Source of the DNA: a virus
Lineage: Duplodnaviria > Caudoviricetes
Length of the DNA: 47,288 nt
Reading direction: 5' to 3' (one strand)
Virus record (IMG/VR): IMGVR_UViG_3300030372_000565
Span: 1 to 47,288 of that record
A model generated the notes under the pieces. That model saw only the letters and a list, made by a program, of their open reading frames with translations. It made no database searches and was not told where the DNA came from. Positions 13,127 through 47,288 of the stretch are shown one piece after another (position 1 is the stretch's first letter; each line of letters opens with the position of its first letter). The translations under genes and the position numbers were made by a program.

Positions 13127-13398
13127 TGGATATAGTTGCCTTAATAGAAAAGTTTGGGTTTTCAACAGTTATGGTGGTTGGTCTTGGTTATTTCGTTTAC
13201 TTTGTTTGGCAAACTATAACCAACAAAATAGACCCTGCTGTAGACCAAATGAAAAGCACAATCATACGTTTGACCGACCAGTTACGTTTGTTAGACCAAG
13301 ATATGATACGATTACAGCAGAAGGTTAATACTGTCTTGGAGTTGAAAGAAGATGAACGAAAACAAAAAGATAAAGAAAAAAGAAGAAAACAGACCTGA
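13126..13398 (+). CDS. Small 1-TM coiled-coil protein, apparent paralog of upstream gene
   Basis: LIEKFGFSTVMVVGLGYFVY; shared DMIR motif. Confidence 0.6.
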   Translation: MDIVALIEKFGFSTVMVVGLGYFVYFVWQTITNKIDPAVDQMKSTIIRLTDQLRLLDQDMIRLQQKVNTVLELKEDERKQKDKEKRRKQT

Positions 13399-13888
13399 CG
13401 AAATACTCGTTTTGTCATCTATGATTCTTACTTTGTTAGTTTTCTTTACGGCTATATTCTTTAGCGACAAAGCAGAAAGTTCTCCAATAGTACATGAGTT
13501 TAAAAACCCTAGTTTCAGTGGTGCTAATACATCTGCACATTATTTGACAATAGACGAGCAAGAAAAAAAGAGACGAGATGAACTTGCTGAGAAAATACAA
13601 TCAGAACTAGAAGAAATAGAAAGAGAAATAGAGAACAGCACACTTAATAAATTCTTAAACAACCTACAAAGCCGTATCTTCAGTAATCTCTCAAGGGATA
13701 TATCTGATATGTTATTTGATGAAGATGGTGGTACTGGTGGAACAATAGAATTAGAAGGCAATCAAATATCATTCTCTAATGATGGAGAATATATAACCTT
13801 AACTGTTATAGCAGAAGATGGCTCTATAACAGAGATTAAAATTCCGATAGGAATATTTGGGATATGCACATCAGACTGTGGAATATAA
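13352..13888 (+). CDS. csgF: Curli assembly component CsgF-like
   Basis: Signal/TM then HEFKNPSFSG (E. coli FQFRNPNFGG), LNKFLNNLQSRI, C-terminal beta strands. Confidence 0.85.
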   Translation: MNENKKIKKKEENRPDEILVLSSMILTLLVFFTAIFFSDKAESSPIVHEFKNPSFSGANTSAHYLTIDEQEKKRRDELAEKIQSELEEIEREIENSTLNKFLNNLQSRIFSNLSRDISDMLFDEDGGTGGTIELEGNQISFSNDGEYITLTVIAEDGSITEIKIPIGIFGICTSDCGI

Positions 13889-14712
13889 TCCTAATACTAG
13901 CCTTAACAGGTTGTGCTTCTTTTGCACCGCCTAGAGCAGAGGAGTGTAAGATATTTGGTTTAACTTGCCCTGAAGATGCAAGAGTAGAAAGAGTAACATT
14001 ACAAAAATTATTAGATTTACGTCCTCCTAATCAAAAAGCAGTTGTGGCTGTATATGCTTTTGATGACTTAACTGGACAACGTAAACCTTCTAATAAGATG
14101 GCATTATTCTCAACAGCAGTAACACAAGGAGCAGAAAACTATTTAATACAGGCACTAAGGAGTGCAGGTGATGGTGAATGGTTTGTGGTTGTAGAGAGAA
14201 AAGGACTCAATAATTTAACTAAAGAAAGACAATTAATTAAATCAACAAGGGAAACCTATGATGGAAAAGGTGCTAATAAACTGAAACCTATTCTATATGC
14301 AGGTATAATCTTGGAAGGTGGTATCGTTTCCTACGAGTCTGATATAAGGACTGGTGGAAATGGTGCAAGGTATTTGGGTATTGGGAACACAAACCAATAC
14401 CGAATAGATGATGTAACTGTGTCCATGAGGGCAGTACTCGTACAGACTGGCGAAGTTATATTGAATGTAACAGTAAGCAAGACGATACTGAGTGCAGGTG
14501 TAAGCAGAGATGTTTTTAGGTTTACCGAAGTAGGTGATACTGAATTGGTAGAAATAGAAACAGGCTATACACAGACAGAAGCCACAGGGTATGCAGTTAG
14601 GTCTGCCATTGAAACGGCAGTCTACGAGTTAGTAATGGAAGGCTTACAAAAAGAGTTGTGGGATTACAATTATATTGAAGTTCCAGACTCTTTAGATGGA
14701 GTAAGAGGATAA
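13864..14712 (+). CDS. csgG: Curli secretion channel lipoprotein CsgG-like
   Basis: Lipobox LTGC; VAVYAFDDLTGQRKP, FSTAVTQG, WFVVVERKGLNNLTKERQLI, GGNGARYLGIG. Confidence 0.93.
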   Translation: MHIRLWNIILILALTGCASFAPPRAEECKIFGLTCPEDARVERVTLQKLLDLRPPNQKAVVAVYAFDDLTGQRKPSNKMALFSTAVTQGAENYLIQALRSAGDGEWFVVVERKGLNNLTKERQLIKSTRETYDGKGANKLKPILYAGIILEGGIVSYESDIRTGGNGARYLGIGNTNQYRIDDVTVSMRAVLVQTGEVILNVTVSKTILSAGVSRDVFRFTEVGDTELVEIETGYTQTEATGYAVRSAIETAVYELVMEGLQKELWDYNYIEVPDSLDGVRG

Positions 14713-15398
14713 TGAAATATTTATTACAACTTTTATTAATACTAGCTATGTCTAATCTGTGGGCAGGGAACAATGACATTTATCTGACTCAATCAGGTGG
14801 TGGAGCATTTACCCTAACGATTGACCAAATAGGCTCAAATAATTCAGTGGGTACTTCAAGCACAAGGTCTACATTTGCAGGTGCAACTATAACTGCTGAT
14901 ATAAAGCAGCAAGGTAATTCCAACAGCCTTGCAAATGCTATAGCACAGGCTGCTAGTTCTAGTTGGACTATGTACCAAATTGGTGATTCCAACAGCAGTA
15001 CAATCACGGCAGGAGGTACAGGGGCTGTAACAAGTTCTGACTTTGACTATAGTGCTACAGGTAATACCAACGTATTGACTTGGTTGCAAGGTAGTTCAAG
15101 TGCTGCTACAGGCGGAAACTTTGACGCAGTTATAACTGGTAACACAAATGATTTAAACATCAGAAGTGAAGTTATAGGAGCAGTCAATAATTGGACTATT
15201 GATGGAAATTCCAACGACATTGATGTAACTCAGATTGGAACTGACGATAAATCAATAACGGCTAGCATAACTGGTGATAGTAACAATATAGACATTGACC
15301 AAACAACAAGTGCATCAGGTGTAACGGACACAATTAATATTGTCGCAGCTTCAACAAGCGGTACGATAAACATTGACCAATGCACAAGTGGTTGCTAA
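14712..15398 (+). CDS. Secreted curlin-repeat protein 1 (CsgA/CsgB-like)
   Basis: Sec signal (LWA/GNN); QxGxxN repeats such as DQIGSNN, QQGNSN, QIGDSN. Confidence 0.75.
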   Translation: MKYLLQLLLILAMSNLWAGNNDIYLTQSGGGAFTLTIDQIGSNNSVGTSSTRSTFAGATITADIKQQGNSNSLANAIAQAASSSWTMYQIGDSNSSTITAGGTGAVTSSDFDYSATGNTNVLTWLQGSSSAATGGNFDAVITGNTNDLNIRSEVIGAVNNWTIDGNSNDIDVTQIGTDDKSITASITGDSNNIDIDQTTSASGVTDTINIVAASTSGTINIDQCTSGC

Positions 15399-16444
15399 TA
15401 GGGTTAGTATCTAGTTCTTTATATGCAGATATAGGTTCTATATCTGAACTGCGTGGGAATGGAGAAGTCTTACGCAGTCAAAACGGAGATAAGCTATTAG
15501 CTGAACTATCTCTAGGCATACTCAGTAATGATGATGTGCGTACTGGCAATGGTCGTATGGCTATACAGTTCTTAGATGATTCTGTTATTAAATTGACTGA
15601 ACATTCTAAAATAGTTGTAGACGAATACATCTATGACCCTAATCCTAGTAAATCAAAGTTGGCTCTTAACATGGCTAGTGGCACTGCTAGATTTATTACA
15701 GGTAAGCTAGGCAAGATAGATAAAAAGAATATATCCATAAAAACTCCAAGTGCCGACATCTCTATTCGTGGCACGGACTTCACAACGACAGTAGACGAAA
15801 TAGGTCGCAGTTTAATTATTCTTTTGCCTGATGAAGATGGTACAAGTTCAGGAGAAATAACAGTAGAAACTGCAGCAGGTATAGAAATCCTAAATAAGCC
15901 CTTTCAAGCGACTATGGTGAGCGTATCTGAAGCACCCCCTACCAAACCAGTCACTTTAGTAAACATGACCTTAAACTTCATTAATAACCTTTTGATAGTT
16001 AATCCTCCTGATGAAGTACAAGAAGCCGTTGATGAACAAAACAGCAAAAGCACTAATGTATTAGATGTGGACTTCTTAGAAGAAAACTTTGATGAAGATG
16101 AACTAGAAGAAGATGAACTTGAAATAGATAGGCTCTCTATAGATTTATTGAATGTAGACTTCCTAATAGATTTATTGGCTTTTATAGAGGGTGAAGAAAG
16201 AGTATCTAAAATAGGAGATGTAACGATAGAAGGCATCACTGTAGGCTTTGACCCAAAAGCACAGGTGTATAGTTTTGTAGAAGGTGAGATGCTAAATTTC
16301 TTTAGAAGTGTAGAAAATACGATAGACTTACAAATAGAAAAGAGGAGTGCTTACAACATACAAATATTAGCAGGCGGTAAGTTTATAGATATAACAGTAA
16401 ATGGTGGTGGTGATGGTACGATTATTATTAATCAGTCTGATTAG
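15380..16444 (+). CDS. Secreted FecR-domain protein with acidic linker
   Basis: Signal peptide; DDVRTG.GRMAIQFLDDS.IKL..HS, GTARF, IKTPSADISIRGTDF. Confidence 0.85.
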   Translation: MHKWLLIGLVSSSLYADIGSISELRGNGEVLRSQNGDKLLAELSLGILSNDDVRTGNGRMAIQFLDDSVIKLTEHSKIVVDEYIYDPNPSKSKLALNMASGTARFITGKLGKIDKKNISIKTPSADISIRGTDFTTTVDEIGRSLIILLPDEDGTSSGEITVETAAGIEILNKPFQATMVSVSEAPPTKPVTLVNMTLNFINNLLIVNPPDEVQEAVDEQNSKSTNVLDVDFLEENFDEDELEEDELEIDRLSIDLLNVDFLIDLLAFIEGEERVSKIGDVTIEGITVGFDPKAQVYSFVEGEMLNFFRSVENTIDLQIEKRSAYNIQILAGGKFIDITVNGGGDGTIIINQSD

Positions 16445-17195
16445 TTTTCCTCTTTTTGCAGGAAATAATGCGATTACTGTTCAGCAGAAAGGCAATGATT
16501 CTGTCATTAACATTAAGCAAGTAGGCTATACAAACAATGCCACAGTCTATTGTGGTTTAAGCAACGGAGTCTATTCAACCCATACTTGCACTAGGGCAAC
16601 AATCAATTTAAACACCACAGGTTCAGGAAATACGACTAAAGCATATTCTCAATGGTCTAATCACTCAGATAACACTTTCAATATAACTCAAGATGGTGAT
16701 AACAATTATGGGTATCTTGACCTAGATAAAGATGACAATACAGGCACTGTTACACAGACAGGCGACAGCAATCATGGTGAAATATTAATGGCAGGAGATG
16801 ACACAAACTATTCAATAACTCAAACTGGAAATAATAAATGGGCAAAGATATTGGCATTTGGAGATGATGCCACTACAACCATTACACAGTCAGGAACAGG
16901 TAATCACAACGCTTATGTCTATAACTACAACTACGCTGATGGCAATACAACGACCATAACTCAGTCAGGTAGTGGAGACCACGATGCAGATATATTTTGG
17001 TATTCAGACGCAGATGATGGAACAGCGTCTATAAATCAATCAGGCTCAGGAGACCATACAGCTAGGCTCAATTTCTATAAAGACGATTACAACGTGGCAG
17101 TAACACAAAGTGGAGCAACAGATAAATCTTTCACAGCGACCTATAACTGCGTAACAAACTGCACAAAGACTTTAACTATTACGCAATATGACTAA
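16413..17195 (+). CDS. Secreted curlin-repeat protein 2 (CsgA/CsgB-like)
   Basis: Sec signal (LFA/GNN); regular TQxGxxN repeats (TQDGDNN, TQTGDSN, TQTGNN, TQSGTGN). Confidence 0.82.
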   Translation: MVRLLLISLISFPLFAGNNAITVQQKGNDSVINIKQVGYTNNATVYCGLSNGVYSTHTCTRATINLNTTGSGNTTKAYSQWSNHSDNTFNITQDGDNNYGYLDLDKDDNTGTVTQTGDSNHGEILMAGDDTNYSITQTGNNKWAKILAFGDDATTTITQSGTGNHNAYVYNYNYADGNTTTITQSGSGDHDADIFWYSDADDGTASINQSGSGDHTARLNFYKDDYNVAVTQSGATDKSFTATYNCVTNCTKTLTITQYD

Positions 17196-17503
17196 GTTTC
17201 ATAATTCATATCGCCTTTGTTTACAAAATGCTCGCATAGCTTTTTTAGGTCTTGATAACCTTTGACTTCTAAACCGACTGGTTCTGTAATAGACCAATAC
17301 TGTCTTGTAGATAAATCACCTTTCTTTATTTTTTCATCTCCGAGACTATTGAGTTTGTCTATTTTTCTTTTGTGTTTTTTGTAAGCATTGAGACTTGCTT
17401 CAGGTGTTGTGAAAGTTTCAATTCTTTGTCCTTCTTCCATCATGTCATTGTCCCAGTCATGTTCCCACCAAGAAGTGCTCCAAGTGTAAAAATATATTTT
17501 CAT
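17192..17503 (-). CDS. Hypothetical protein, antisense gene within the curli-cyclase module
   Basis: ORF with its own sigma70-like promoter; start probably ATG 17503. Confidence 0.6.
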   Translation of the reverse strand: MKIYFYTWSTSWWEHDWDNDMMEEGQRIETFTTPEASLNAYKKHKRKIDKLNSLGDEKIKKGDLSTRQYWSITEPVGLEVKGYQDLKKLCEHFVNKGDMNYET

Positions 17504-17532
17504 AGTATGTATAATCAATTTATAAAAATGTA

Positions 17533-17561
17533 ATACTAATCCTTAATGGAATACTTGTCAA
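17533..17561 (-). promoter_or_regulatory. Sigma70-like promoter TTGACA-17-TAGTAT with operator AATCC-N5-GGAAT
   Basis: Read directly on the minus strand. Confidence 0.7.
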
Positions 17562-17564
17562 ACT

Positions 17565-19337
17565 ATGATTAAACACTTAATACCCTTAGTTCTTTTAGTT
17601 CTTTTGGGTATTCCTTTAGTTTATCAATCAACACCAACAGAAATATTAAAACTAAAAACTTTTGATGCTTTAGTTCCTGAACAAAAACCTTCAGGGTATT
17701 TTACTATTCTAAATATTACAGAAGATGATATAGCTAATGAAGGTGGTTATCCTTTATCAAGACAAACTCTTGCACAGATACAAATAAATTTATTACGCAA
17801 AGGTGCAATAGGTGTTGGTTGGGTAATAGCATTTCCACAACCTGATAGATTTGGTGGAGACCAAGAATTCGCACAGGCATTATCTTTTTCTCCAAGTGTC
17901 CTTGCTATGTTTGAAAACGATAATAATGATTATCCTCCTACTACTGGAACAGTCATTATGGGAGAAGATGTAGGTGGTATTGATGCACAAGGAGTTATAC
18001 AAAACATTGAAATACTTAAACAAAGTGCTAATCAAGGTATAGCCGTTGCTAGAGTAGAAGTTGATTCATTAATTAGACGATTACCTTTATTGCTTAGAAC
18101 TCCTGATGGTTGGGTTCCTGCTTATGGTACTGAAGTTCTAAAGATATTAACTGGTGCTGATACTTACGTTATAAAAACTAATGAAATAGGTATAGAAGAA
18201 ATAAGGGTCAAAGGTTTACCGCCTGTAAAAACAGATGCACTTGGTCGTAAATGGATAAGTTGGGTAGACACACCACAAACAGACCTAAGAGAAATGAATG
18301 TTGAAGGCAAGTTCGTGTTTGTTGGATTTACAGCAAAAGGAATAATGCCACAGTTAGGTGTACCTAATGGTCAACTTTTGGAACCGCATAAGATACAAGC
18401 TGCACTAGCAGAGTCTATTCTTATTGAAAACAGTCCTTACGTTCCTGACTACGCACTAGCAGTAGAGGTAGGCATATTTGCTCTTTCAGTACTATTTGCG
18501 TGGCTTATATTAAACGTATTTGGTATAACGCTTGGTGTTACCTTATTTACAACTTTATTGCTTACAACGGCTTATTTTGGCTTCTATACAATTCAACAAG
18601 GATTGTTAATAGACGTAACATGGACACTAATATCACAGTTTATTACAGGTTCAGTAGCTTTCTACGTTAGATTTAGGCAACAATTTAAACTCAGGCAGCA
18701 AATTAAAAAACAATTTGAGCATTATTTAGACCCAAGACAGGTTAAAGAACTGCAAAAGAATCCTGATAAGCTGAAGTTAGGTGGAGAGAAACGCTATGCC
18801 ACGTTCCTATTTACAGACGTTAGGGGATTCACCTCTCTTTCTGAGACCTTAGAGCCTGAGCAAGTAACTTACATAATGAATAAAGCACTCACAGCACAAC
18901 AGAAAGCCGTTCAGGTTCATGGTGGAATGGTAGACAAATACATTGGGGATGCAATGATGGCTATATTCTCAGCACCTTTAGATTTAGAACACCATGAAAA
19001 TAAGGCTATAGATTGTGCTTTAGATATTCAGAAAAACATGGAAGAACTAAATGAGGAACTACACCTTCAAGGGATTGAACCAGTAGCCATAGGTATAGGC
19101 ATCAATACTGGATATGCAGTTATAGGAAACATGGGAAGTGAAGAAAGGTTTGATTATACAGGAATTGGGGATGCAGTTAATACGGCAGCAAGGTTAGAAT
19201 CAGGCACTAAAGAAGCAGGAGTAGATTTGCTCATTGGGTACAATACTGCTATAAAGAGTGACTATAAGTTAAGATTGTTAGAACCATTAAAGGTTAAAGG
19301 CAAAGAAGAACCATTACAGGTGTATACATGGGAATGA
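17565..19337 (+). CDS. CHASE2-domain membrane class III adenylate cyclase
   Basis: N-terminal TM, CHASE2-like region (YPLSR, FPQPDRFGGD, DSLIRR), 3 TMs, FTDVRGFT, DKYIGDA, DYTGIGDAVNTAARLE. Confidence 0.92.
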   Translation: MIKHLIPLVLLVLLGIPLVYQSTPTEILKLKTFDALVPEQKPSGYFTILNITEDDIANEGGYPLSRQTLAQIQINLLRKGAIGVGWVIAFPQPDRFGGDQEFAQALSFSPSVLAMFENDNNDYPPTTGTVIMGEDVGGIDAQGVIQNIEILKQSANQGIAVARVEVDSLIRRLPLLLRTPDGWVPAYGTEVLKILTGADTYVIKTNEIGIEEIRVKGLPPVKTDALGRKWISWVDTPQTDLREMNVEGKFVFVGFTAKGIMPQLGVPNGQLLEPHKIQAALAESILIENSPYVPDYALAVEVGIFALSVLFAWLILNVFGITLGVTLFTTLLLTTAYFGFYTIQQGLLIDVTWTLISQFITGSVAFYVRFRQQFKLRQQIKKQFEHYLDPRQVKELQKNPDKLKLGGEKRYATFLFTDVRGFTSLSETLEPEQVTYIMNKALTAQQKAVQVHGGMVDKYIGDAMMAIFSAPLDLEHHENKAIDCALDIQKNMEELNEELHLQGIEPVAIGIGINTGYAVIGNMGSEERFDYTGIGDAVNTAARLESGTKEAGVDLLIGYNTAIKSDYKLRLLEPLKVKGKEEPLQVYTWE

Positions 19338-23256: not shown

Positions 23257-23580
23257 TCATTTTATTATTTTTATCTGTTGGAAAAATCTAATTTTTGTAT
23301 CAAATTCTTCCTTATTTATAAGACCATAAGCAAGTTGCTCTTGTAAGTGTTCTTCTGAGTGTATGTATTCCCACTCTATTTCTTCTATCATTTTAAGAGC
23401 ATCTTTCTTGAATTGAAATGCCTGTATAAAATTAAAAGTACAATGTAGATCACCGCTATCTTGCTTTTGCAGGTAATTTTCATTGATGAACAATTCGTAC
23501 TTATCTATATGACCTTTAGAAATTAGATAAGTACCTTTAGAACCTCTGAAAGTTTCACCAAGTTTAATTAGTTTTTTCAT
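23257..23580 (-). CDS. Hypothetical early protein
   Basis: GAGGA RBS; promoter at 23606-23633. Confidence 0.6.
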   Translation of the reverse strand: MKKLIKLGETFRGSKGTYLISKGHIDKYELFINENYLQKQDSGDLHCTFNFIQAFQFKKDALKMIEEIEWEYIHSEEHLQEQLAYGLINKEEFDTKIRFFQQIKIIK

Positions 23581-23600
23581 GTTATTTTCCTCAATTAAAA

Positions 23601-23726
23601 ATTACATTATGGACTACTCAACCATAAAGTAAAGACTTTTTGGAATAATATTTTAATGTTTCACATGAAACATATTACGAAAGTTGTTGACCTGCCCTGT
23701 CAATTTGATATAATCCGATATGTACT
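23601..23726. promoter_or_regulatory. Divergent early promoters with three operator-like sites
   Basis: Minus TTTACT-16-CATAAT (23633-23606); plus TTGACC-16-TATAAT (23687-23714); motif copies at 23601, 23632, 23712. Confidence 0.65.
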
Positions 23727-23748
23727 ATTATAAATTGAAGGAGATACT

Positions 23749-23982
23749 ATGAAAGAAAACGAGTACAAGTCAGGTGACTTAATAAGAGCCAACGTAGATT
23801 TTTACGTTATGCAAAAAAGACTAAAAAGCAGAAGTTGGTATTCAGGTTATTATCACTACACAGTAAATACGATAGGTTACAAATGGGTGACACTCAAGGC
23901 TCACGGCAAGAATTATAAAATGCCTAGAGATGTTTGGGACTCACTTATTAAGACCAATCGCTTTCGTTTGGAGAAAGCCTAA
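23749..23982 (+). CDS. Hypothetical early protein
   Basis: AAGGAG RBS. Confidence 0.6.
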   Translation: MKENEYKSGDLIRANVDFYVMQKRLKSRSWYSGYYHYTVNTIGYKWVTLKAHGKNYKMPRDVWDSLIKTNRFRLEKA

Positions 23983-28771: not shown

Positions 28772-29125
28772 GTGAATAATATGAAAAACACATACGAAAC
28801 TACAAAGACTATCAATCTAGCACCTGAGTCTAAAACTATTAGAAAGTTTTTAGATGAAATGTTAGAAGATAGACATATCAGCATTCAAAGACTCATGTCT
28901 TTACGCAACCTGACTAGAGAACAAGCATCTGACTTGTTTGACGATAATCACAGAGGTTACGAAGAACTTTGGGAATTAGGTTTTCAAAGAAAAGTTGAAG
29001 TTGAAGTTGATTGTGACAATGACTACAAAGAAACAAGAATTTATGGCTACCCTGCTGTAACTTGGAGAAAAAGTCATGGTTATCATCAAACAGACTTTGA
29101 TTCAGAAAATGAGGAGCAGGCATAA
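28772..29125 (+). CDS. Hypothetical protein
   Basis: ORF after promoter; start may be ATG 28781. Confidence 0.6.
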   Translation: MNNMKNTYETTKTINLAPESKTIRKFLDEMLEDRHISIQRLMSLRNLTREQASDLFDDNHRGYEELWELGFQRKVEVEVDCDNDYKETRIYGYPAVTWRKSHGYHQTDFDSENEEQA

Positions 29126-29138
29126 GCCTGCTTTCCTC
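29111..29138 (+). terminator. GC-rich hairpin at gene end
   Basis: AGCAGGC-ataa-GCCTGCT with short U run. Confidence 0.45.
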
Positions 29139-29580: not shown

Positions 29581-30972
29581 ATGGCTAAAGAAAAAAATAC
29601 ATTGAATCCTGCCTTTTATAAAATGATGGATAATTTTTTAGACCCTTTTAAAAGTTGGATTGCACTTTCTGATTCACAAATGACAGGTTATGACCTTGCA
29701 ACAACTCAAGACTTCATGCAAGAAGAACATAAATTACAAAGCAAGTACGGAAATAATTATCAACAAATGATTATGAATAATAAAATTCCTTATGAAGAAA
29801 TTTCTGTATTGAACCAACAACTTTATTATGAACAGGAATATCTCAAAGAAGAATATGACCTTTGGTTAGATTGTTTGAAAATGCAATTTGACGTACAAAC
29901 TCTACATAAATACCTGCCAAAAAAAACGGAACTGATAGAGTTTTTTTCTGATGTTCAACTGCGTATGCCACATGAAAAAACTTTGCTCATACAAGAGTAT
30001 GATAAAAATAGCTGTGCTTTAGTCAGTATAAAAGAAACAAAAGCAAAAGATTTTAAGAAAAAAATAAAACCAATAGCTTTAAATAATAGTGCAGGTGTTA
30101 TATCTAGGAGAAACAAGTTACACCCAAAAAGAATATTTAATTCTTGGAATTTAAAAAGAAATGAAAGTGTTTACGAAGCAAAAATAAGTGTTTTTACAAA
30201 CCTAACGCATGACAGTATATTGAATAAAGAAGAACATGATTTAAAAGATATTTCTTTTTTAACTAGACCCACTTGTTTTTCAGTTCCTGTATCTTTTTCT
30301 TTCCCTGCAGGTTTGTCACTTGACAAGTATCAATACTTTCACCCAACGAAAGATGAAGGAATAAAATCTTTAATAACAAGCTACGCACCTAATAAAACTG
30401 GTGGTTCAATGTTTAAGATGTCTGACCCTTACTTTGCACCTATATTCTTTCCTGATTCTTTCCGTTTTAAAAACAAAATACTCAACACAGAAAAACAACA
30501 GTATTATTTAACAAATACAGAGCCTTTTAATATACAAGCAAGTTATATGGAGATGAATGACGCTGCATATATGTTAGTAATGAATGCAATGACACACATG
30601 AGCATATACAGTCACCCTGATTTTAGAGAATTTTGTGTCCGCAAACTCAAAAAGCAAGGACAGCAACCACAACAAATAACTTTAAAAAAAGGAGAACCTT
30701 TTAAGAAACAAATAAACAAACCTAAGTTTGAACATTATTTGCTTGACCTAACTATACCTGCTGAAAGCGATGACCATACTGACGGAGAAGCAGGTAAAAA
30801 AAGGTATCACTTAGTGAGGGGTCATTTGATGCGAACCAATAAAGGTAAATTTACTTGGAGACAATCGCACTGGCGAGGTAACAAAAAACTAGGAGTAATT
30901 ACAAAAGATTACAACATAGAAGTAGATAGACGTATCAAAAACGATAATGAGGATAGTTTTAGAATTAACTAA
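29581..30972 (+). CDS. Large hypothetical protein with C-terminal HxVRGH...HWRG motif
   Basis: 463-aa ORF; RYHLVRGHLMR...WRQSHWRG. Confidence 0.7.
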   Translation: MAKEKNTLNPAFYKMMDNFLDPFKSWIALSDSQMTGYDLATTQDFMQEEHKLQSKYGNNYQQMIMNNKIPYEEISVLNQQLYYEQEYLKEEYDLWLDCLKMQFDVQTLHKYLPKKTELIEFFSDVQLRMPHEKTLLIQEYDKNSCALVSIKETKAKDFKKKIKPIALNNSAGVISRRNKLHPKRIFNSWNLKRNESVYEAKISVFTNLTHDSILNKEEHDLKDISFLTRPTCFSVPVSFSFPAGLSLDKYQYFHPTKDEGIKSLITSYAPNKTGGSMFKMSDPYFAPIFFPDSFRFKNKILNTEKQQYYLTNTEPFNIQASYMEMNDAAYMLVMNAMTHMSIYSHPDFREFCVRKLKKQGQQPQQITLKKGEPFKKQINKPKFEHYLLDLTIPAESDDHTDGEAGKKRYHLVRGHLMRTNKGKFTWRQSHWRGNKKLGVITKDYNIEVDRRIKNDNEDSFRIN

Positions 30973-31925: not shown

Positions 31926-32081
31926 GTGAGAAAAGCGACACTTAACAACATTGGCTTCCAATCCAACACTGGGTCTAGGGGAAAGAAAACAAGCATAGGC
32001 AGGAAGAACATCGGCACTTCCACCATGAACAAACACACCAAGCGTATGAGAAAGAAAAAATATAGAGGGCAGGGAAAATAA
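31926..32081 (+). CDS. 51-aa highly basic protein ending KKYRGQGK, not in ORF track
   Basis: GTG start after AAGGAG; stop overlaps next ATG. Confidence 0.65.
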   Translation: MRKATLNNIGFQSNTGSRGKKTSIGRKNIGTSTMNKHTKRMRKKKYRGQGK

Positions 32082-32374
32082 TGTTACCGAAAGAATACCA
32101 AGATTACTTTGACGATATGATGTCTAAAATGGATAACGCAAAAGTTCAGATATGTCCTGATTGCGGTGAAACTGATTGGGGTATAATTATAGAGCCAAAA
32201 GTCCTTTTGGTCTGTAATGAATGTGATTACTCTTATACAGATGAACTTCTGTTTCGTGTCATTGTTCCATATCTGCCAAAAACTCAGAAAGAAATGGATG
32301 AACAAAAGGAAAGCAATCCTTTTTATCAATTATCTGTATTAACTCATGTGTTTAGATGCTTGGGGAAAACTTAA
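32081..32374 (+). CDS. Zinc-ribbon protein
   Basis: CPDC...CNEC. Confidence 0.6.
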   Translation: MLPKEYQDYFDDMMSKMDNAKVQICPDCGETDWGIIIEPKVLLVCNECDYSYTDELLFRVIVPYLPKTQKEMDEQKESNPFYQLSVLTHVFRCLGKT

Positions 32375-32392
32375 AATAATTTTTTAAAACAC

Positions 32393-32421
32393 TTGCTATA
32401 TATTCCCACTTGGACTAATAT
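32393..32421 (+). promoter_or_regulatory. Promoter TTGCTA-17-TAATAT with operator ATTCC-cactt-GGACT
   Basis: Read directly. Confidence 0.65.
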
Positions 32422-32426
32422 AGGTA

Positions 32427-32612
32427 GGGTTAGTTACCTCAATACGTTGAGTGAGGAAGGAACAGGACGAACATGGAGACATCCAAACCTGTAAAAGATG
32501 GAGAACTAAGGAGATGTTCTTAGCAAAGCAGACCATCAGACTTCCAACCTGTTAAAAGGGTATTCCTCAAATAACAACTAAGTGAAGGGCGGAGAAATCT
32601 GCCCTTTTTTTT
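32427..32612 (+). ncRNA. Candidate ~185-nt structured ncRNA
   Basis: Own promoter and terminator; nested complementary segments; no long sense ORF. Confidence 0.6.
32585..32612 (+). terminator. Rho-independent terminator
   Basis: AAGGGCGGA-gaaa-TCTGCCCTT plus T8 run. Confidence 0.9.
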
Positions 32613-32637
32613 ATGAGAAATAAACAACCGAAAAGAG

Positions 32638-32665
32638 TTGCAATAAATCCAAAAGGGACTATAAT
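32638..32665 (+). promoter_or_regulatory. Promoter TTGCAA-16-TATAAT with operator AATCC-aaaag-GGACT
   Basis: Read directly. Confidence 0.7.
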
Positions 32666-32697
32666 AGATAGTGTTAATTAAATGAAAAGGAGATAAA

Positions 32698-33051
32698 ATG
32701 AAATACTTAATAATAGACCCACAAACATACAAGGTTGTAATCAATCAGTATGGCTCAACAAGATTCTTTGACTCAGTAAGAGGTGCAAAAACTTCTTTGA
32801 CATCTAAGATTAAAAAGGTTGCAGCGAGAAATGCTGAGTACATAAACGAATACGGTGTAGGTGGATTTGATAATAACACTGGCAAAGAGTTAGAGATTCT
32901 TCAAAGAGCAGTGGTCATAGAAGAAAACGAATTTAAAAGTAAAGAGCCTATGGTAATTAAAAAATGTTTTATGACTGGTGATACTTTTATAGAACCACTA
33001 AACACACCTTACTCTGCAAGCAGAAGTTCAGAAACTTTCTGGTCATCTTAA
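32698..33051 (+). CDS. Hypothetical monocistronic early protein
   Basis: AAGGAG RBS; flanked by promoter and terminator. Confidence 0.7.
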   Translation: MKYLIIDPQTYKVVINQYGSTRFFDSVRGAKTSLTSKIKKVAARNAEYINEYGVGGFDNNTGKELEILQRAVVIEENEFKSKEPMVIKKCFMTGDTFIEPLNTPYSASRSSETFWSS

Positions 33052-33057
33052 AACAGC

Positions 33058-33093
33058 AAAAGAAAGAGGGGGTCAATAGACTCCCTTTTTTTT
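33058..33093. terminator. Bidirectional terminator
   Basis: A-rich tract, AGGGGGTC-aata-GACTCCCT, T run; between convergent genes. Confidence 0.85.
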
Positions 33094-33096
33094 GTT

Positions 33097-33456
33097 TTAA
33101 ATATCCATCCACTGCCAAGTATTGACATTGGCTTTATTTTCACCAGTGTAATTAACTGAATAATATTTGTTTTTTTTTGCAAGTTTTTTGGTTGATTTTA
33201 TATATGTTTGTTCAAGTTCACACAAATTGACATAAGATATATTTTTTAGACTTTCTAAAATCTCTTTTTTGAATATTTCTTTGCCGTAAATTCTTTTGTA
33301 GTGATAAATAATTAGTGACGAGCCAAAGTAATTAGGATTATTTTTTGTATCTAATCCAATGTAGACGTAGTTTTTATTATCTATAGTAAAACTAATTTTA
33401 TATATCTCTGCTTTCTCTACTGTTTTAGCGGTTGATAATTCGTAGTCCATAAGCAC
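33097..33456 (-). CDS. GIY-YIG (Seg-like) endonuclease domain protein
   Basis: EIYKI...YIG...YFGSS...YGKEIFKKEIL...E. Confidence 0.72.
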   Translation of the reverse strand: MLMDYELSTAKTVEKAEIYKISFTIDNKNYVYIGLDTKNNPNYFGSSLIIYHYKRIYGKEIFKKEILESLKNISYVNLCELEQTYIKSTKKLAKKNKYYSVNYTGENKANVNTWQWMDI

Positions 33457-41110: not shown

Positions 41111-41464
41111 ATGAGTGCAGGTTATCATCATTTTATAATAGAACAAGGGGCAACATTTGGTCAGACCCTAACGCTTAAAGATTCAAGCGACACAGTAATC
41201 AATTTATCAGGTTACGCATCAGCAGAAATGGACTTGAGGGAAACACCTGAAAGTTCTTCAACAGTAATAACACTCACAACAGCAAATAGCAGAATAGCAT
41301 TAGGCGGTGCTGCAGGCACAGTTACGTTAAGCATTACAGCAGCAGACACAGCTAATTTAACAGCAGGAGAAGGTGTTTTTGACCTTGAGATAGTAGATGG
41401 TTCATCAGGGGTTTATCGCATCTTAGAAGGCACTTACGCAATCAGAAGGAATATAAGTAGATAA
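41111..41464 (+). CDS. Small beta-sandwich virion protein (fibre anchor, BppU N-terminal-like)
   Basis: IEQGATF, INLSGY, GVFDLEI, RILEG; TAATG-coupled to giant fibre gene. Confidence 0.6.
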
Positions 41465-44400
41465 TGGCTATATCAAAGGTATCAACGGCTAATACTAGCA
41501 CCATAAATAAAGTAGTTGTTTCAGACACAGATGCAATAAGTGTAATAACAGTAGGAACGCAGGGATTAGCAGGAGCACAAACATTATTAGGAGCAACTAC
41601 TGCAGATGAATCCGTAGGTTCAGATGACATAGGCTCAACAGTAATATATGACCACGCTAATACAAGGTGGTTGGCAACAACTTCTAGCAATGCAAGTTCA
41701 TTAACTACTAAATTAGTAGGATTAACTTTTACTGCAGGTGGAGCATCAGTAACAGGTGTTTTAGATGAAGATAACTTAGGAACTAACAGTAATACTAAAT
41801 TAGCTACACAACAAAGTATCAAGGCATACGTTGATGCACAGGTAACAGCACAAGACTTAGACTTTCAAGGTGATTCAGGTGGTGCTTTATCAATAGACTT
41901 AGATTCAGAAGCGTTTACATTTACTGGTGGTACTGGAATAGATACCACAGGAAGCGGTAACACAATGACTTTTGCTATAGATAGCACTGTAGCAACACTA
42001 ACTGGTTCACAAACACTAACAAACAAAACTCTTACATCACCAGTATTCAATACAGCAGTTTCAGGCACAGCAATATTAGACGAAGATGATTTATCTTCTA
42101 ACAGTGCTACGAAGATAGCTACACAGCAATCTATCAAAGCCTATGTAGATGCTCAAGTAACTGCTCAAGATTTAGATGCCACTACGGATAGTGGAACAAT
42201 AGCAATAGATTTAGATAGCGAAACCTTAACAATAGCAGGTGGTGAAGGTATAGATACTTCAGCAACCTCTAATACGATAACCATAGCTGCAGAAGAAGCT
42301 ACCAGTAGCAATAAAGGTGTGGCTTCATTTGATGGCACGGACTTTACTGTTTCTTCAGGAGCAGTAACAGTTAATGCAGAAAGGGTACAAGATATAGTAG
42401 GTGCTATGTTCTCAAGCAATACAGAAACAGGTATTGCAGCTACATACGAGGACGGAGACGGAACAGTTGACTTAGTTATAGGTTCAGGGGTTATAACTAA
42501 TGCAATGTTGGCAGGCTCTATAGCTAATGCCAAACTAGCCAATTCATCTATTACAGTTTCAGATGGCAGTAATACCACAGATATAGCATTAGGCGGAACA
42601 GTAACTTATGCTGCAGGAGAAGGCTTAGACGTAGCAGAATCAAGCGGAACAGTTACTTTCAGTGCTGAAGATGCAACCTCTAGCAATAAAGGTATAGCTA
42701 GTTTTGATTCTACTGATTTTTCAGTAAGTTCAGGTGCAGTAACACTGGTAGCAGAAAGAATATCAGACATTGTTGGTGCAATGGTTACTTCCAATACGGA
42801 AAGTGGCATAGCAGTTACCTATCAAGATGCAGACAACACCTTAGACTTTGACGTAGGTGATTTTGATATTGCCCTAACAGGAGATGTTACAGGCTCAGGA
42901 ACAGTAACAAATTTAGGCAACGTATCTATATCAACAACAGTTGCAGCTAATTCAGTAGCACTAGGTACAGACACCACAGGTAACTACCTATTAGAAATAG
43001 CAGTAGGTGAAGGTTTAGACGTTTCACATACACAAGGAGAAGGAAGTACAGCTACATTATCAGCAGAACTTGCTACAGAAACTAATGCAGGGGTAGCCAC
43101 ATTTGACGGAACTGATTTTACAGTATCTTCAGGTGATGTAACGATTAATGCTGAAAGAGTCCAAGACATAGTAGGAGCAATGGTAGGCTCTAACACAGAG
43201 TCAGGAATATCAGTTACTTACGAAGATGGAGATGGCACTTTAGATTTCAATGTTAATGACCCTACTATAACTATTGATGGTGATATAGATGGTAGTGCCA
43301 CTATGACCAATCTTGGCAACACAACTATTTCTTTAACATTAGACACAGTAAACTCAAATGTAGGTTCTTTTGGTAGTTCAACTGCTATACCTGCCATAAC
43401 AGTAAATGCTAAAGGTCTAATTACAGCAGTAAGCACTAACAATATCTCAACAAGTTTCACATTAGCTGCAGATAGTGGCTCTAATGACACTTTTAATACA
43501 GGCGATACTTTAACTCTTAGTGGAACTTCAAATGAAATAGAAACCACAGTATCAGACAACGAAATAACAATAGGATTACCTGATAACGTAACTATAGGTG
43601 GCAACCTTACAGTAACAGGTAATTACACAGTCAACGGAACTACCACTACAGTTAATACTGCTACGCTTGAAGTTGAAGACCCTTTAATCAAGTTAGCCAA
43701 AGCAAACAATTCTTCTGATTCATTAGATATAGGTATCTATGGACTATACGACACTTCAGGTTCACAAGACTTATATGCAGGTCTATTTAGAGATGCTAAT
43801 GATAGTGGCAAATGGAAACTATTTAAAAGCCTACAAGCAGAGCCTACAACTACTGTAAATACAAGTGGAACTGGTTATGCCAAAGCAACTCTAGTAGCAG
43901 ATATAGAAGGAGATGTAACAGGAGATGTAACAGGTGCATTAACTGGTAATGCTGCAACAGCTACAGCACTTGCATCAGCTAGAACGATACACGGAGTAAG
44001 TTTTGATGGTACTGCCAATATAGACCTATCAGAAGTTATATCTGACACTGTAGGGGCTATGTTCAGTTCTAATACTGAGACTGGAATAGCAGCAACGTAT
44101 CAAGACAGCGACAACACAATAGACCTAGTAGTAGGAACTTTAAATCAGGACACAACTGGTAATGCAGCCACAGCCACAGCTTTAGAAACAGCAAGAACTA
44201 TTGGTGGTACAAGTTTTGACGGAACGGCAAATATAGCAGTAGCTTTAGCTGCAACTGCCACAGCATTAGCGAGTGCTCGTACAATTCATGGGGTTAGTTT
44301 TGACGGAACTGCAAACATTGACTTATCTGAGGTAATTCAAGACACAGTTGGTGCTATGTTTGGGTCAAACACCGAAACTGGTATCACTGTAACTTATGAA

Positions 44401-47288
44401 GATGGCGATGGAACTATAGACCTTGTTGTAGGTACTCTCAATCAAGATACTACTGGTTTAGCAGCAACGGCAACAGCATTGGCTACCGCAAGAACCATAC
44501 ATGGTGTGTCTTTTGACGGCACAGCCAACATAGATTTAAGTGAGGTTATATCCGATACTGTGGGTGCAATGTTCTCTAGTAACACAGAGACAGGTGTTAC
44601 TGTAACTTATCAAGATTCAGATAATACGATTGATGTTGTAGTAGATACTTCAGCACTTACAGAAACACTTACCAATAAGACATTAACGAGTCCAGTTCTA
44701 AACACTGGTGTATCAGGAACAGCCATAAAAGATGAAGATAACATGGCTTCTGATTCAGCTACTCATTTAGCTACACAACAGTCAATTAAGGCTTATGTAG
44801 ATTCACAAGTATCAACAACTGAAGGAATACAGGATATTGTTGGAGCAATGTTCAGTAGTAATACTGAAACAGGAGTAACTGTAACCTACGAAGATGGTGA
44901 CGGCACGATAGATTTAGTGGTTGGAACATTAAACCAAGACACTACAGGAAATGCTGCAACTGCAACTGCCTTAGAGACTGCGAGGACTATACATGGGGTA
45001 TCATTTGATGGGTCAGCTAATATAGATTTATCCGAAGTTATTTCTGACACAGTTGGGGCAATGTTTTCCAGTAATACGGAAACAGGGGTCACAGTTACCT
45101 ATCAAGATAGTGACAATACTATTGACGTAGTAGTAGGCACACTAAACCAAGATACAACTGGAACTGCTGATAACATTACAGTTTCAGCCAATAACTCTAC
45201 AGATGAAACTGTATATCCAGTATTTGTAGATGGTGCTACTGGTTCGCAAGGGGCAGAAACAGATACAGGACTTACCTACAATCCGTCTACAGGTTTATTA
45301 ACATCTACAGGGTTTTCAGGCAATTTAACAGGAACATTACAGACTGCAGCACAAGCAAACGTAACCAGTTTAGGCACACTTACCTCATTGACTGTTTCAG
45401 GTGATGTAACTGTAGATACCAACACATTAAAGGTTGATAGTTCTAATAATAGGGTAGGAATTAAACAGGCTTCACCAAGTGTAGGATTAGATGTAGGAAG
45501 TGTTACAGACGCTATTTTAATAGCCAAAGGAACAACAGCACAAAGACCAACAGGGGCAGCAGGACAATTTAGATACAACACAACCCTAAGTAAGTTTGAA
45601 GGATATACGGACTCTTGGGGAGAAATAGGTGGAGCAGGAACATCTACCTTCAGCACCAACACTTATACGGCAAATGGTTCAACAACAGCTTTCACATTAA
45701 GCCAAGCACCTGATAGCGAAGATAACATTATGGTATTCGTAGAGGGTGTCTTTATGAATCCTAATGACTATGCACTTAGTGGAACAACGCTTACATTAGA
45801 TGCAGCACCGCCAAATGGCAGGAAAATAGTAGTACATCACGTTTCAGCAGCAGTAGCAGGAACAGGAGTACATCAAAACAGTTTCACAGGCAATGGAAGC
45901 ACAACTGCCTTCACATTAGGAGTATCTGCTGATAGTGAGAACAATACACAAGTCTTTATAGATGGTGTTTATCAAAACAAGTCCACTTACGCAGTATCAG
46001 GCACTACATTAACTTTTGATGCTGCACCTGCAAGCAGTGCTGCCATAGAGGTAATGACATTAACTCAAACTGAGATTAATACTTTCCCTGCAAGTGGTAT
46101 ATCTAACTTAACAGAAGTTACACCAGTAGCAGGCGACCATGTGATGATTTACGATGCTACTGACAACGCACTTAAAAAATCAGATGTTGCGGACTTAATG
46201 GCATCATCAGTAAGTATTACTTCATCAGCAGATGCAGTAGCTATGACGTTTGATAGTAGTGAAAACGCAACCTTTACAGGAAATATAGTAACAACAGGAA
46301 CAAAACAAATTCAATTTGGTGATTCAGGAACTTACATACATCAATCAGCAGATGGAGTATTAGACCTAGTATCTGATACAGAAATAGAGATTAATGCCAC
46401 AACCATAGACATTAATGGTGCTGTTGCAATGGACGGAGCAATGACAGGTGGTACTAATATCACTATATCAGGAGAACTAGACGCAGCTACTTTAGATATA
46501 AGTGGTAATGCTGATATAGACGGAACATTAGAAACAGATGCACTATCTATAAATGGTACAGCAGTTACAAGCACAGCAGCAGAATTAAATATACTTGATG
46601 GAGCAACAGTTGTTGTTGGTGAAATAAACGCATTAGATTTAGGCTCAACTGCTGTAGGCACAGCTATTGCTTCTAAAGCAGTTATATTAGACTCTAACAA
46701 AGATTACACAGGTTTAAGAAACTTAACAATTACAGGTGAACTAAATGCAGCTACTTTAGACATAAGTGGCGACGTAGATATTGATGGAACACTAGAAACA
46801 GATAATTTAACAGTAGGTGGAGCACAAGGTAGTGATGGACAAGTATTAACTTCTACAGGAAGTGGAGTTGCGTGGGAAGATGCAGCAGGTGGTACTGACC
46901 CAGACGGAGCACAAACATTTAATGATAGCGGTGCTGCAGTAGATTTCAGAATAGAAGGAGATACTGATGCAAATTTATTCTTTTTAGATGGTAGTGAAGA
47001 TAAAATTGGTATAGGAACTAACGCTCCTACTTCAAAGCTACATTTAGAAAACTCTGCATCAAACGCTGTTGTGCAAATAGGTTTTGAAAATGATGCACAA
47101 GAATGGCGATTAGGAGTTCATGGTGGACTATCAGATGGCTTTCTTCTATATGATAATACCAATAGTGCTTCTCGCTTTTTTGTGGGAACGGACGGAAACG
47201 TAGGCATAGGAACTACGAGTCCAATGACTTTGCTTCATGTTTTTGAAGGAGATGGTTCTTATCCTGATGATGCTAATAATCATCTTGT
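41464..47288 (+). CDS. Giant repeat-rich fibre protein, >=1941 aa, 3'-truncated, absent from ORF track
   Basis: ATG 41464 [11 protein letters not shown]...; frame 1 reads open to window end; [48 protein letters not shown] repeats. Confidence 0.9.
43940..45170 (+). repeat. Degenerate ~180-bp tandem coding repeats in the fibre gene
   Basis: About four units of [39 protein letters not shown]...TY.D.D.TID.VV. Confidence 0.85.

Follow-up and report, generated by a model that had tools for sequence, protein, structure and literature searches.

A swappable, protein-free cassette in a marine siphovirus genome as a candidate orphan small RNA

The window, the whole 47,288-base stretch of DNA that was analysed, is a near-complete (93%) marine siphovirus genome encoding siphovirus tail, connector, terminase, portal and capsid proteins together with a lambda-O-like replication initiator and a Sak-like annealing protein, and the sequencing runs that cover it best are marine metagenomes. 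Scans of the whole window for tRNAs and for Rfam families above cut-off came back empty. The unit described here lies approximately 900 bases before the ORF preceding the large terminase gene, within an array of small promoter-gene-terminator cassettes (Table 1). Between this array and the terminase genes, the minus strand carries a 119-aa ORF resembling GIY-YIG homing endonucleases (33097-33456), which was not seen at the matching place in locus L001. Elsewhere in the window, a 463-aa ORF (29581-30972) is unusually long for the accessory region and has no PHROG or Pfam match, and no complete plus-strand ORF is listed over approximately 6 kb (41464-47288 plus 1-295), where the record appears to be cut within a long tail-fibre-like gene running off its end.

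Table 1. Features of the unit and of the cassettes on either side of it (window coordinates).
Feature	Position	Strand	Basis or remark
97-aa zinc-ribbon-like ORF	32081-32374	+	Upstream marker of the cassette slot; zinc-ribbon Pfam matches weak, below cut-off
Predicted sigma-70-type promoter of a repeated phage family	32393-32421	+	-35 at 32393-32398, -10 at 32416-32421
Operator-like inverted repeat, TCC-N5-GGA core	32401-32417		In the promoter spacer; middle five bases vary, rest kept across the family
Leader common to protein-coding cassettes	32422-32436	+	Similarity stops at 32436
Core without a sizeable ORF (147 bases, 41% G+C)	32437-32583	+	No known family and no divergent homologue found
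Closing helix of the predicted branched fold (32452-32458 with 32563-32569)	32452-32569	+	Pair probabilities 0.73-0.97
GGA cluster: six GGA, four ANGGA; resembles SD and CsrA sites	32455-32512	+	Predicted mostly paired
Direct repeat, copy 1 (imperfect, ~40 bases)	32458-32497	+	1/500 shuffles reach its score
Inner helices and hairpin	32462-66/32488-92, 32497-501/32533-37; hairpin 32506-32523	+	Predicted, inside the closing helix
16-codon ORF	32473-32523	+	AGGA 5 bases before ATG 32473
13-codon ORF, overlapping the 16-codon ORF	32514-32555	+	GGAG 10 bases before ATG 32514
Direct repeat, copy 2	32522-32558	+	Rivals copy 1 for the 5' arm 32461-32466
Intrinsic-terminator-like hairpin and U run	32584-32612	+	Terminator scan, pair probability
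Next cassette	32613-33093	+	Shared spacer, promoter 32638-32665, 117-aa ORF 32698-33051, terminator 33060-33093

The first-pass annotation had proposed a stand-alone structured RNA enclosed by a promoter with an operator and by a strong terminator, and every sequence string that it listed was located at its position. A generic sigma-70 scan misses the promoter, yet this is clearly a member of a promoter family that is repeated in these phages. A weight matrix built from 12 hand-picked seed copies, and hence partly circular, gave 28 matches in 83 loci and the window, comprising 14 distinct plus-strand copies in relatives, nine duplicates, one reverse reading and four matches in the window, which are its own two copies each counted twice. 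A separate pattern scan gave 28 loci, in which more copies before other small genes were mixed with chance matches. Transcription is predicted from the -10 spacing to start at about 32426-32428. The arms of the inverted repeat in the promoter spacer are kept across the family while its middle varies, as expected for the site of a dimeric protein, and the repeat is therefore a putative operator. The terminator is as strong as had been claimed, with a 10-pair stem (32584-32607) followed by a T run and a pair probability of 1.0. A motif resembling the cassette operator (TATTCC-AAAAAG) also occurs in a divergent promoter region of the window (23580-23749), which separates small genes read leftward from the replication operon read rightward, and this motif is present in more distant relatives too.

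Comparison with related loci indicated that the unit occupies a slot whose contents are exchanged. The 97-aa ORF has relatives in L014 (88%) and L018/L019 (69%), and the slot behind it holds 92-aa or 119-aa genes there under the same promoter family. In relatives, each of the 14 distinct promoter copies is followed by a Shine-Dalgarno (SD) sequence and then by an ORF of 38-144 aa. In runs X12 and X14, contigs agree with the promoter and leader as far as 32436 and then pass into an SD-ATG, which fixes the 5' junction of the core at 32436/32437. In run X6, the 3' part of the core is joined to the downstream promoter with seven listed differences, all of which correspond to the L001 allele, so the unit is present in more than one background. 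Similarly, the region of the neighbouring 117-aa ORF is identical at 373 of 378 positions in L083, a phage that is only 75% identical over the terminase region; an Atlas search with this ORF gave scores below 0.9 only. The unit is absent from all 49 related records, six of which are at least 90% complete, and is thus dispensable for the group. Contigs from six studies (X5, X6, X7, X11, X12 and X13) cover the core wholly or partly with no listed difference inside it, although these contigs are shallow (depth ~3-6) and a few unlisted single differences near their ends could not be placed. This identity across runs may reflect recent spread rather than selection.

On these comparisons, the unit is a real, cleanly bounded and protein-free cassette of the swappable promoter-gene-terminator type. 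The closest described systems are the PeSL cassettes of T4-type phages (PMC2839356, PMC4122927), in which repeated modules of a sigma-70-like promoter and a stem-loop are reported to flank small genes whose function is unknown and to serve as points of exchange from phage to phage. Like these, the unit has a repeated conserved promoter before variable cargo, with exchange of cargo between related phages, but its module does not end in an SD and start codon, as the module does in the 14 copies of its relatives. It further differs from PeSL cassettes in belonging to a 47-kb siphovirus, in having a separate terminator placed before the next promoter and in the operator-like inverted repeat of its spacer. 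Neither 'noncoding' nor 'small RNA' appears in the accessible text of PMC4122927. Three of 12 scanned cassette proteins resemble ArdC-N anti-restriction domains, one of them over the Pfam cut-off, and the others are unassigned; such ArdC-N-like proteins in sister cassettes fit a cargo used in host takeover.

Two further observations concern the early genes of these phages. Stand-alone ArdC-N-like proteins of 99 aa are the first genes of sister cassettes in L005 (3284-3583), L007 (4135-4434) and L010 (1282-1581) and are, from their sequences, candidate anti-restriction factors. A conserved hairpin of 8-9 pairs spans the stop codons of many early genes, immediately ahead of the SD that follows (17 matches, including window 29114-29132, L001 1353, L007 2782/4423/5187, L014 1000 and L018 3639), so that the encoded proteins are forced to end in 'EQA' or 'EAA'; the hairpin may serve in processing, coupling or recombination.

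Searches for divergent copies of the unit were uniformly negative. Neither blastn nor nhmmer identified a divergent copy in 82 loci, 80 of which are terminase relatives drawn from 442 found. In the 49 related records, DNA searching gave two short chance matches and a covariance model of the unit gave none. Exact-pattern scans of viral contigs returned one match in an unrelated context and none for a second pattern, neither result being homologous, while further patterns gave 15 and 67 matches with no homologue among them; one look-alike (X17) proved to be the tail of a different gene whose terminator is similar. Another viral-contig pattern, run over 12 of 64 parts, gave 123 loci, of which 112 lie in open frames or are duplicates and 11 are unrelated. 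Five matches in metagenome contigs comprised four chance matches and L084, which is identical over 3,020 bases and was left out as an independent copy. A pattern scan of GTDB genomes gave no match, phage, plasmid and E. coli collections contained no divergent copy, and the only match in 149 gammaproteobacterial-class genomes was a bare terminator. Judged from sequence, the unit is likely to be a new orphan phage small RNA.

Within the core, the 5' half is purine-rich and an internal duplication of approximately 40 bases is significant, with only four of 318 other genome windows reaching its score. The first-pass annotation had described the RNA as a rod with internal bubbles, and this did not hold. 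As drawn, the rod has a predicted energy of -26.4 kcal/mol, against -34.1 kcal/mol for the best fold, which is branched; the best structure that retains both long-range helices reaches -30.1 kcal/mol. Among the individual pairings that had been listed, TGAGGAA/TTCCTCA, GATGG/CCATC (0.94-0.95) and the apical hairpin (0.81-0.88) are well predicted, whereas the CTCAA hairpin (0.24-0.41), TTAGTT/AACTAA (~0.2), AACAGG/CCTGTT (0.06-0.07) and TGGAG/TTCCA (0.00) are not. The CCTGT at 32488, which had been offered as an alternative partner, is instead predicted to be the preferred one: the arm at 32461-32466 is predicted to choose repeat copy 1 over copy 2 (probabilities of 0.91 and 0.07, respectively), and does so at 37, 25 and 15 C. 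Two stretches are predicted to be open, 32467-32473 (0.95) and 32524-32532 (0.89). Compared with shuffled sequences, the unit folds with z = -2.3 when the terminator is included (4/200 shuffles) and with z = -1.0 when it is not (32426-32583, 71/500 shuffles; -1.65 for 32450-32572), so the folding signal comes mostly from the terminator. In a comparable test with terminators included, the unit gave z = -2.8, compared with -4.6 for CsrB, -6.8 for CsrC and -6.1 for E. coli 6S RNA.

The unit resembles no established RNA family. At E<=10, Rfam matched the stretch 32200-32800 weakly 12 times, mostly on the terminator and in every case far below cut-off, and genome-wide searches with single models for 6S, RsmY, RsmX, CsrB, C4, tracrRNA and ToxI gave no match at the unit. 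CRISPR-repeat families were not found at E<=10 and RF02348 gave no match, although Rfam covers only some repeat and tracrRNA types. The two imperfect repeats invited comparison with pseudo-ToxI RNAs, but no compact H-type pseudoknot and no RF02519 match were found at the unit; a test for C4 likewise gave no RF01695 match and no standout complementary target sites in the phage genome. Several specific likenesses were also considered and rejected. Mimicry of the tRNA-Tyr/Asn anticodon loop fails because the flanking bases cannot close an anticodon stem. A resemblance of the 3' end to an sgRNA or tracrRNA has no model match behind it and no U-rich partner for a lower stem, and likenesses to hammerhead, retron and preQ1 RNAs lacked Rfam support.

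A different non-coding element was noted in locus L074, where a leader of approximately 150 bases precedes the replication-initiator gene on the minus strand (4280-4108) and contains the same 25-base hairpin unit twice, at a distance of 87 bases. Rfam gave this leader no match over the cut-off, the weak matches being to DUF2815 and RAGATH-26, and it was found in one of 50 related records. Kinship between this leader and the unit was rejected, as they have a 10-base loop motif in common while their overall similarity is at chance (229/1000 shuffles).

The proposal of a stand-alone non-coding transcript is nevertheless backed by its comparative context, namely the shared promoter family, the slot and the switch point at 32436/32437. 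Given the family promoter, the strong terminator and the swappable slot, it is likely that the unit is transcribed as a discrete RNA, and we lean slightly towards this RNA being functional as such. Any more specific claim of function is weak for now, no divergent homologue having been found. Our preferred reading, which is tentative, is that the unit yields a stand-alone RNA of approximately 187 bases, presumably early in infection, and that the folded RNA would bind and tie up a host RNA-binding protein during takeover. In the predicted branched fold the two repeat copies would vie for a single 5' arm, leaving one copy out of the helix, and a duplicated motif of this kind may be favoured by multivalent protein binding; the partner would be a protein rather than another RNA. 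This reading draws on the cassette context, the lost translation leader, the duplicated motif and the precedent of other phage RNAs, and three helices with pair probabilities of 0.81-0.97 are in its favour. Against it, the core folds no better than shuffles and no known decoy family matches. Phage RNAs that act as protein decoys have been described, including the solitary repeats known as Racr (PMC10651486) and viral sgRNAs (vsgRNA; 10.64898/2026.06.01.729453). As far as these are described, Racr, viral sgRNAs and pseudo-ToxI are, like the unit, small phage RNAs with their own promoter among accessory or anti-defence genes, and they target host proteins; the unit differs in that it has no CRISPR-repeat, tracrRNA or ToxI match and no compact pseudoknot.

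The strongest competitor, although we consider it rather unlikely, is that the core is a functionless relic or filler, foreign or decayed DNA lodged between a family promoter and terminator and transcribed to no effect. Its unremarkable folding energy, the lack of homologues and its absence from close relatives are all consistent with this, and degraded cassettes are among those described in PeSL arrays (PMC4122927, in the accessible text). However, the promoter and terminator are intact, the junction at 32436/32437 is clean and the unit occurs in more than one background; the core also shows no listed change across the six studies and no trace of a decayed reading frame.

It is less likely that the unit is a base-pairing small RNA whose spare repeat copy or A-rich single strands pair with mRNAs of the host or of competing phages. 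A promoter, hairpins and a U-tailed terminator are typical of such RNAs, the two open stretches could provide pairing sites, and pairing phage sRNAs are known, according to the accessible part of PMC13501541. These stretches are short, though, no C4 match was found, and the phage's own genome offers no standout target, the longest perfect complement to the unit being 12 bases within a coding region.

A sponge for CsrA/RsmA is a sub-case of the preferred decoy reading, accounting for less than half of it, and CsrA/RsmA is the leading named candidate for the partner; taken by itself, we regard this role as doubtful. Host CsrA would be captured by the six GGA motifs, which would lift its repression of phage mRNAs, in whose SD sites AGGA occurs. 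The first-pass annotation had pointed to many GGA motifs; there are seven in the unit, and the cluster of six makes this the only 60-base stretch on either strand of the genome with at least six GGA or at least four ANGGA. The combination of promoter, GGA cluster and terminator is also that used in a screen for Csr RNAs in Pseudoalteromonas, as described in the accessible text of PMC11882849. Like CsrB, CsrC, RsmY and RsmZ, the unit is a stand-alone promoter-to-terminator unit of similar size with a GGA cluster, but it is phage-encoded, has 3.7 rather than 5.7-6.0 GGA per 100 bases and has these predicted in stems rather than loops. The mean predicted unpaired probability of its GGAs is 0.22, lower than the shuffle mean of 0.41 (143/150 shuffles higher) and than those of CsrB (0.85, 0/60 shuffles higher) and CsrC (0.66, 35/150), which leaves a Csr-type sponge weakly supported. 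The number of GGAs is likewise not above that of dinucleotide shuffles (p = 0.24, compared with 0.0025 for CsrB and 0.008 for CsrC). More favourably for a sponge, a fold only 1.6 kcal/mol above the best places one AAGGA in a loop, and nascent prefixes of 80-90 bases are predicted to expose the GGAs at 0.5-0.6.

Family models added little to the sponge proposal, the evidence for which is mixed. None of RF00018, RF00084, RF00166, RF00195 and RF02144 was above cut-off at the unit. The PrrB/RsmZ model (RF00166) has its sole match in the genome at 32502-32612, with 9.5 bits against a cut-off of 44, and this model gives below-cut-off matches in 13 of 14 control genomes too. A covariance model of the unit (R1) ranked E. 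coli CsrC first of 94 sources with 22.8 bits, but homology to CsrC was rejected as a terminator artefact, since unrelated terminators score 19.5-23.9 bits with the same model and, once the terminator is removed, the similarity disappears (407/1000 shuffles) and no match remains in 96 sources. We found no phage-encoded Csr or 6S RNA in the literature, a search mostly outside subscription journals and of main texts rather than supplements such as motif catalogues, and neither CsrA, RsmA nor 6S RNA is mentioned in the accessible text of a 2025 review of phage sRNAs (PMC12197685).

The plausibility of a CsrA sponge also depends on the host. Searches with the terminase, capsid and cyclase proteins gave no close named relative and did not pin the host; the best terminase matches were 51% in GTDB genomes and 49% in isolated phages. 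The window, from a siphovirus, carries a curli-secretion-type module (13352-19337) that encodes CsgG, FecR and a CHASE2 adenylate cyclase. The cyclase has more than 7,000 relatives, with best isolate matches of 32% in SAR11 and OM43 phages, and the accessible text of PMC9599517 describes the curli/FecR/cyclase module in podo- and myoviral pelagiphages and its movement between pelagiphage families. The module therefore only hints at a streamlined marine host, without naming one. When genomes sharing the class of an alphaproteobacterial genome were sampled, CsrA was over cut-off in just 18 of 101, which weighs against the sponge in view of the SAR11/OM43 phages from which the module is best known. 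The corresponding figure for unlabelled genomes sharing the class of a Cellvibrionaceae genome is 168 of 201, a tally that takes in two genomes marked unpublished (G094 and G196), on which nothing else here depends. None of 25 phage records encodes csrA. According to the accessible part of a study of phage RsmA proteins (PMC8450108), sequestering RsmA raises CRISPR-Cas expression in Serratia, an effect that would hurt the phage.

We consider it equally doubtful that the unit is an mRNA for a tiny peptide, either 16 aa long and starting at 32473 or 13 aa long and starting at 32514, comparable to the protein cargo carried by all sister cassettes. Both start codons are preceded by SD-like motifs and a crude SD-ATG test flagged the unit. 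Nevertheless, the absence of a substantial sense ORF, claimed in the first-pass annotation, was borne out: the longest frames inside the unit are 34 aa (GTG start, no SD), 16 aa and 13 aa, and a PHROG search with four short frames of 33-74 aa gave no match. The A/T-rich family leader with AAGGAGA (approximately -7.1 kcal/mol, 7/8 relatives tested) is replaced here, and the two SD sequences that remain score -5.5 and -6.4, are poorly spaced and are predicted to be paired (0.26 and 0.32 unpaired). A 16-codon product would also leave approximately 60 bases past its stop codon unexplained. The 6S-like RNA that had been suggested, which would bind host RNA polymerase, is very improbable: the length (187 versus 183 bases in E. 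coli) and a helix joining the ends are similar, but RF00013 matches nowhere in the genome at E<=10 and likeness to the 6S sequence is no better than chance (231/1000 shuffles). In place of a long rod with a central bubble, E. coli 6S RNA itself folding as a rod, a branched fold closed by a 7-bp helix is predicted, over which a rod would cost 4-8 kcal/mol, and the unit ends in a terminator of its own.

The preferred reading of an RNA decoy for a host protein also has a self-limiting version, which we consider an unlikely refinement. Here, the unit would be a sponge for CsrA/RsmA, a global regulator of translation in the host, or for an RNA-sensing defence protein, and would travel as exchangeable cargo of the early cassette array. 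Its binding sites would be open on the nascent RNA and would become inaccessible when the 3' half folds back on them.

Small proteins are the known cargo of shuffled early-gene cassettes, and this unit suggests that a stand-alone RNA can be carried there too. Cassette promoters that are not followed by the usual leader and start codon may therefore offer a search route for regulatory and anti-defence RNAs of phages. Should the unit turn out to sponge CsrA or to decoy a defence system, host takeover by abundant marine phages would have an RNA-based route as well.
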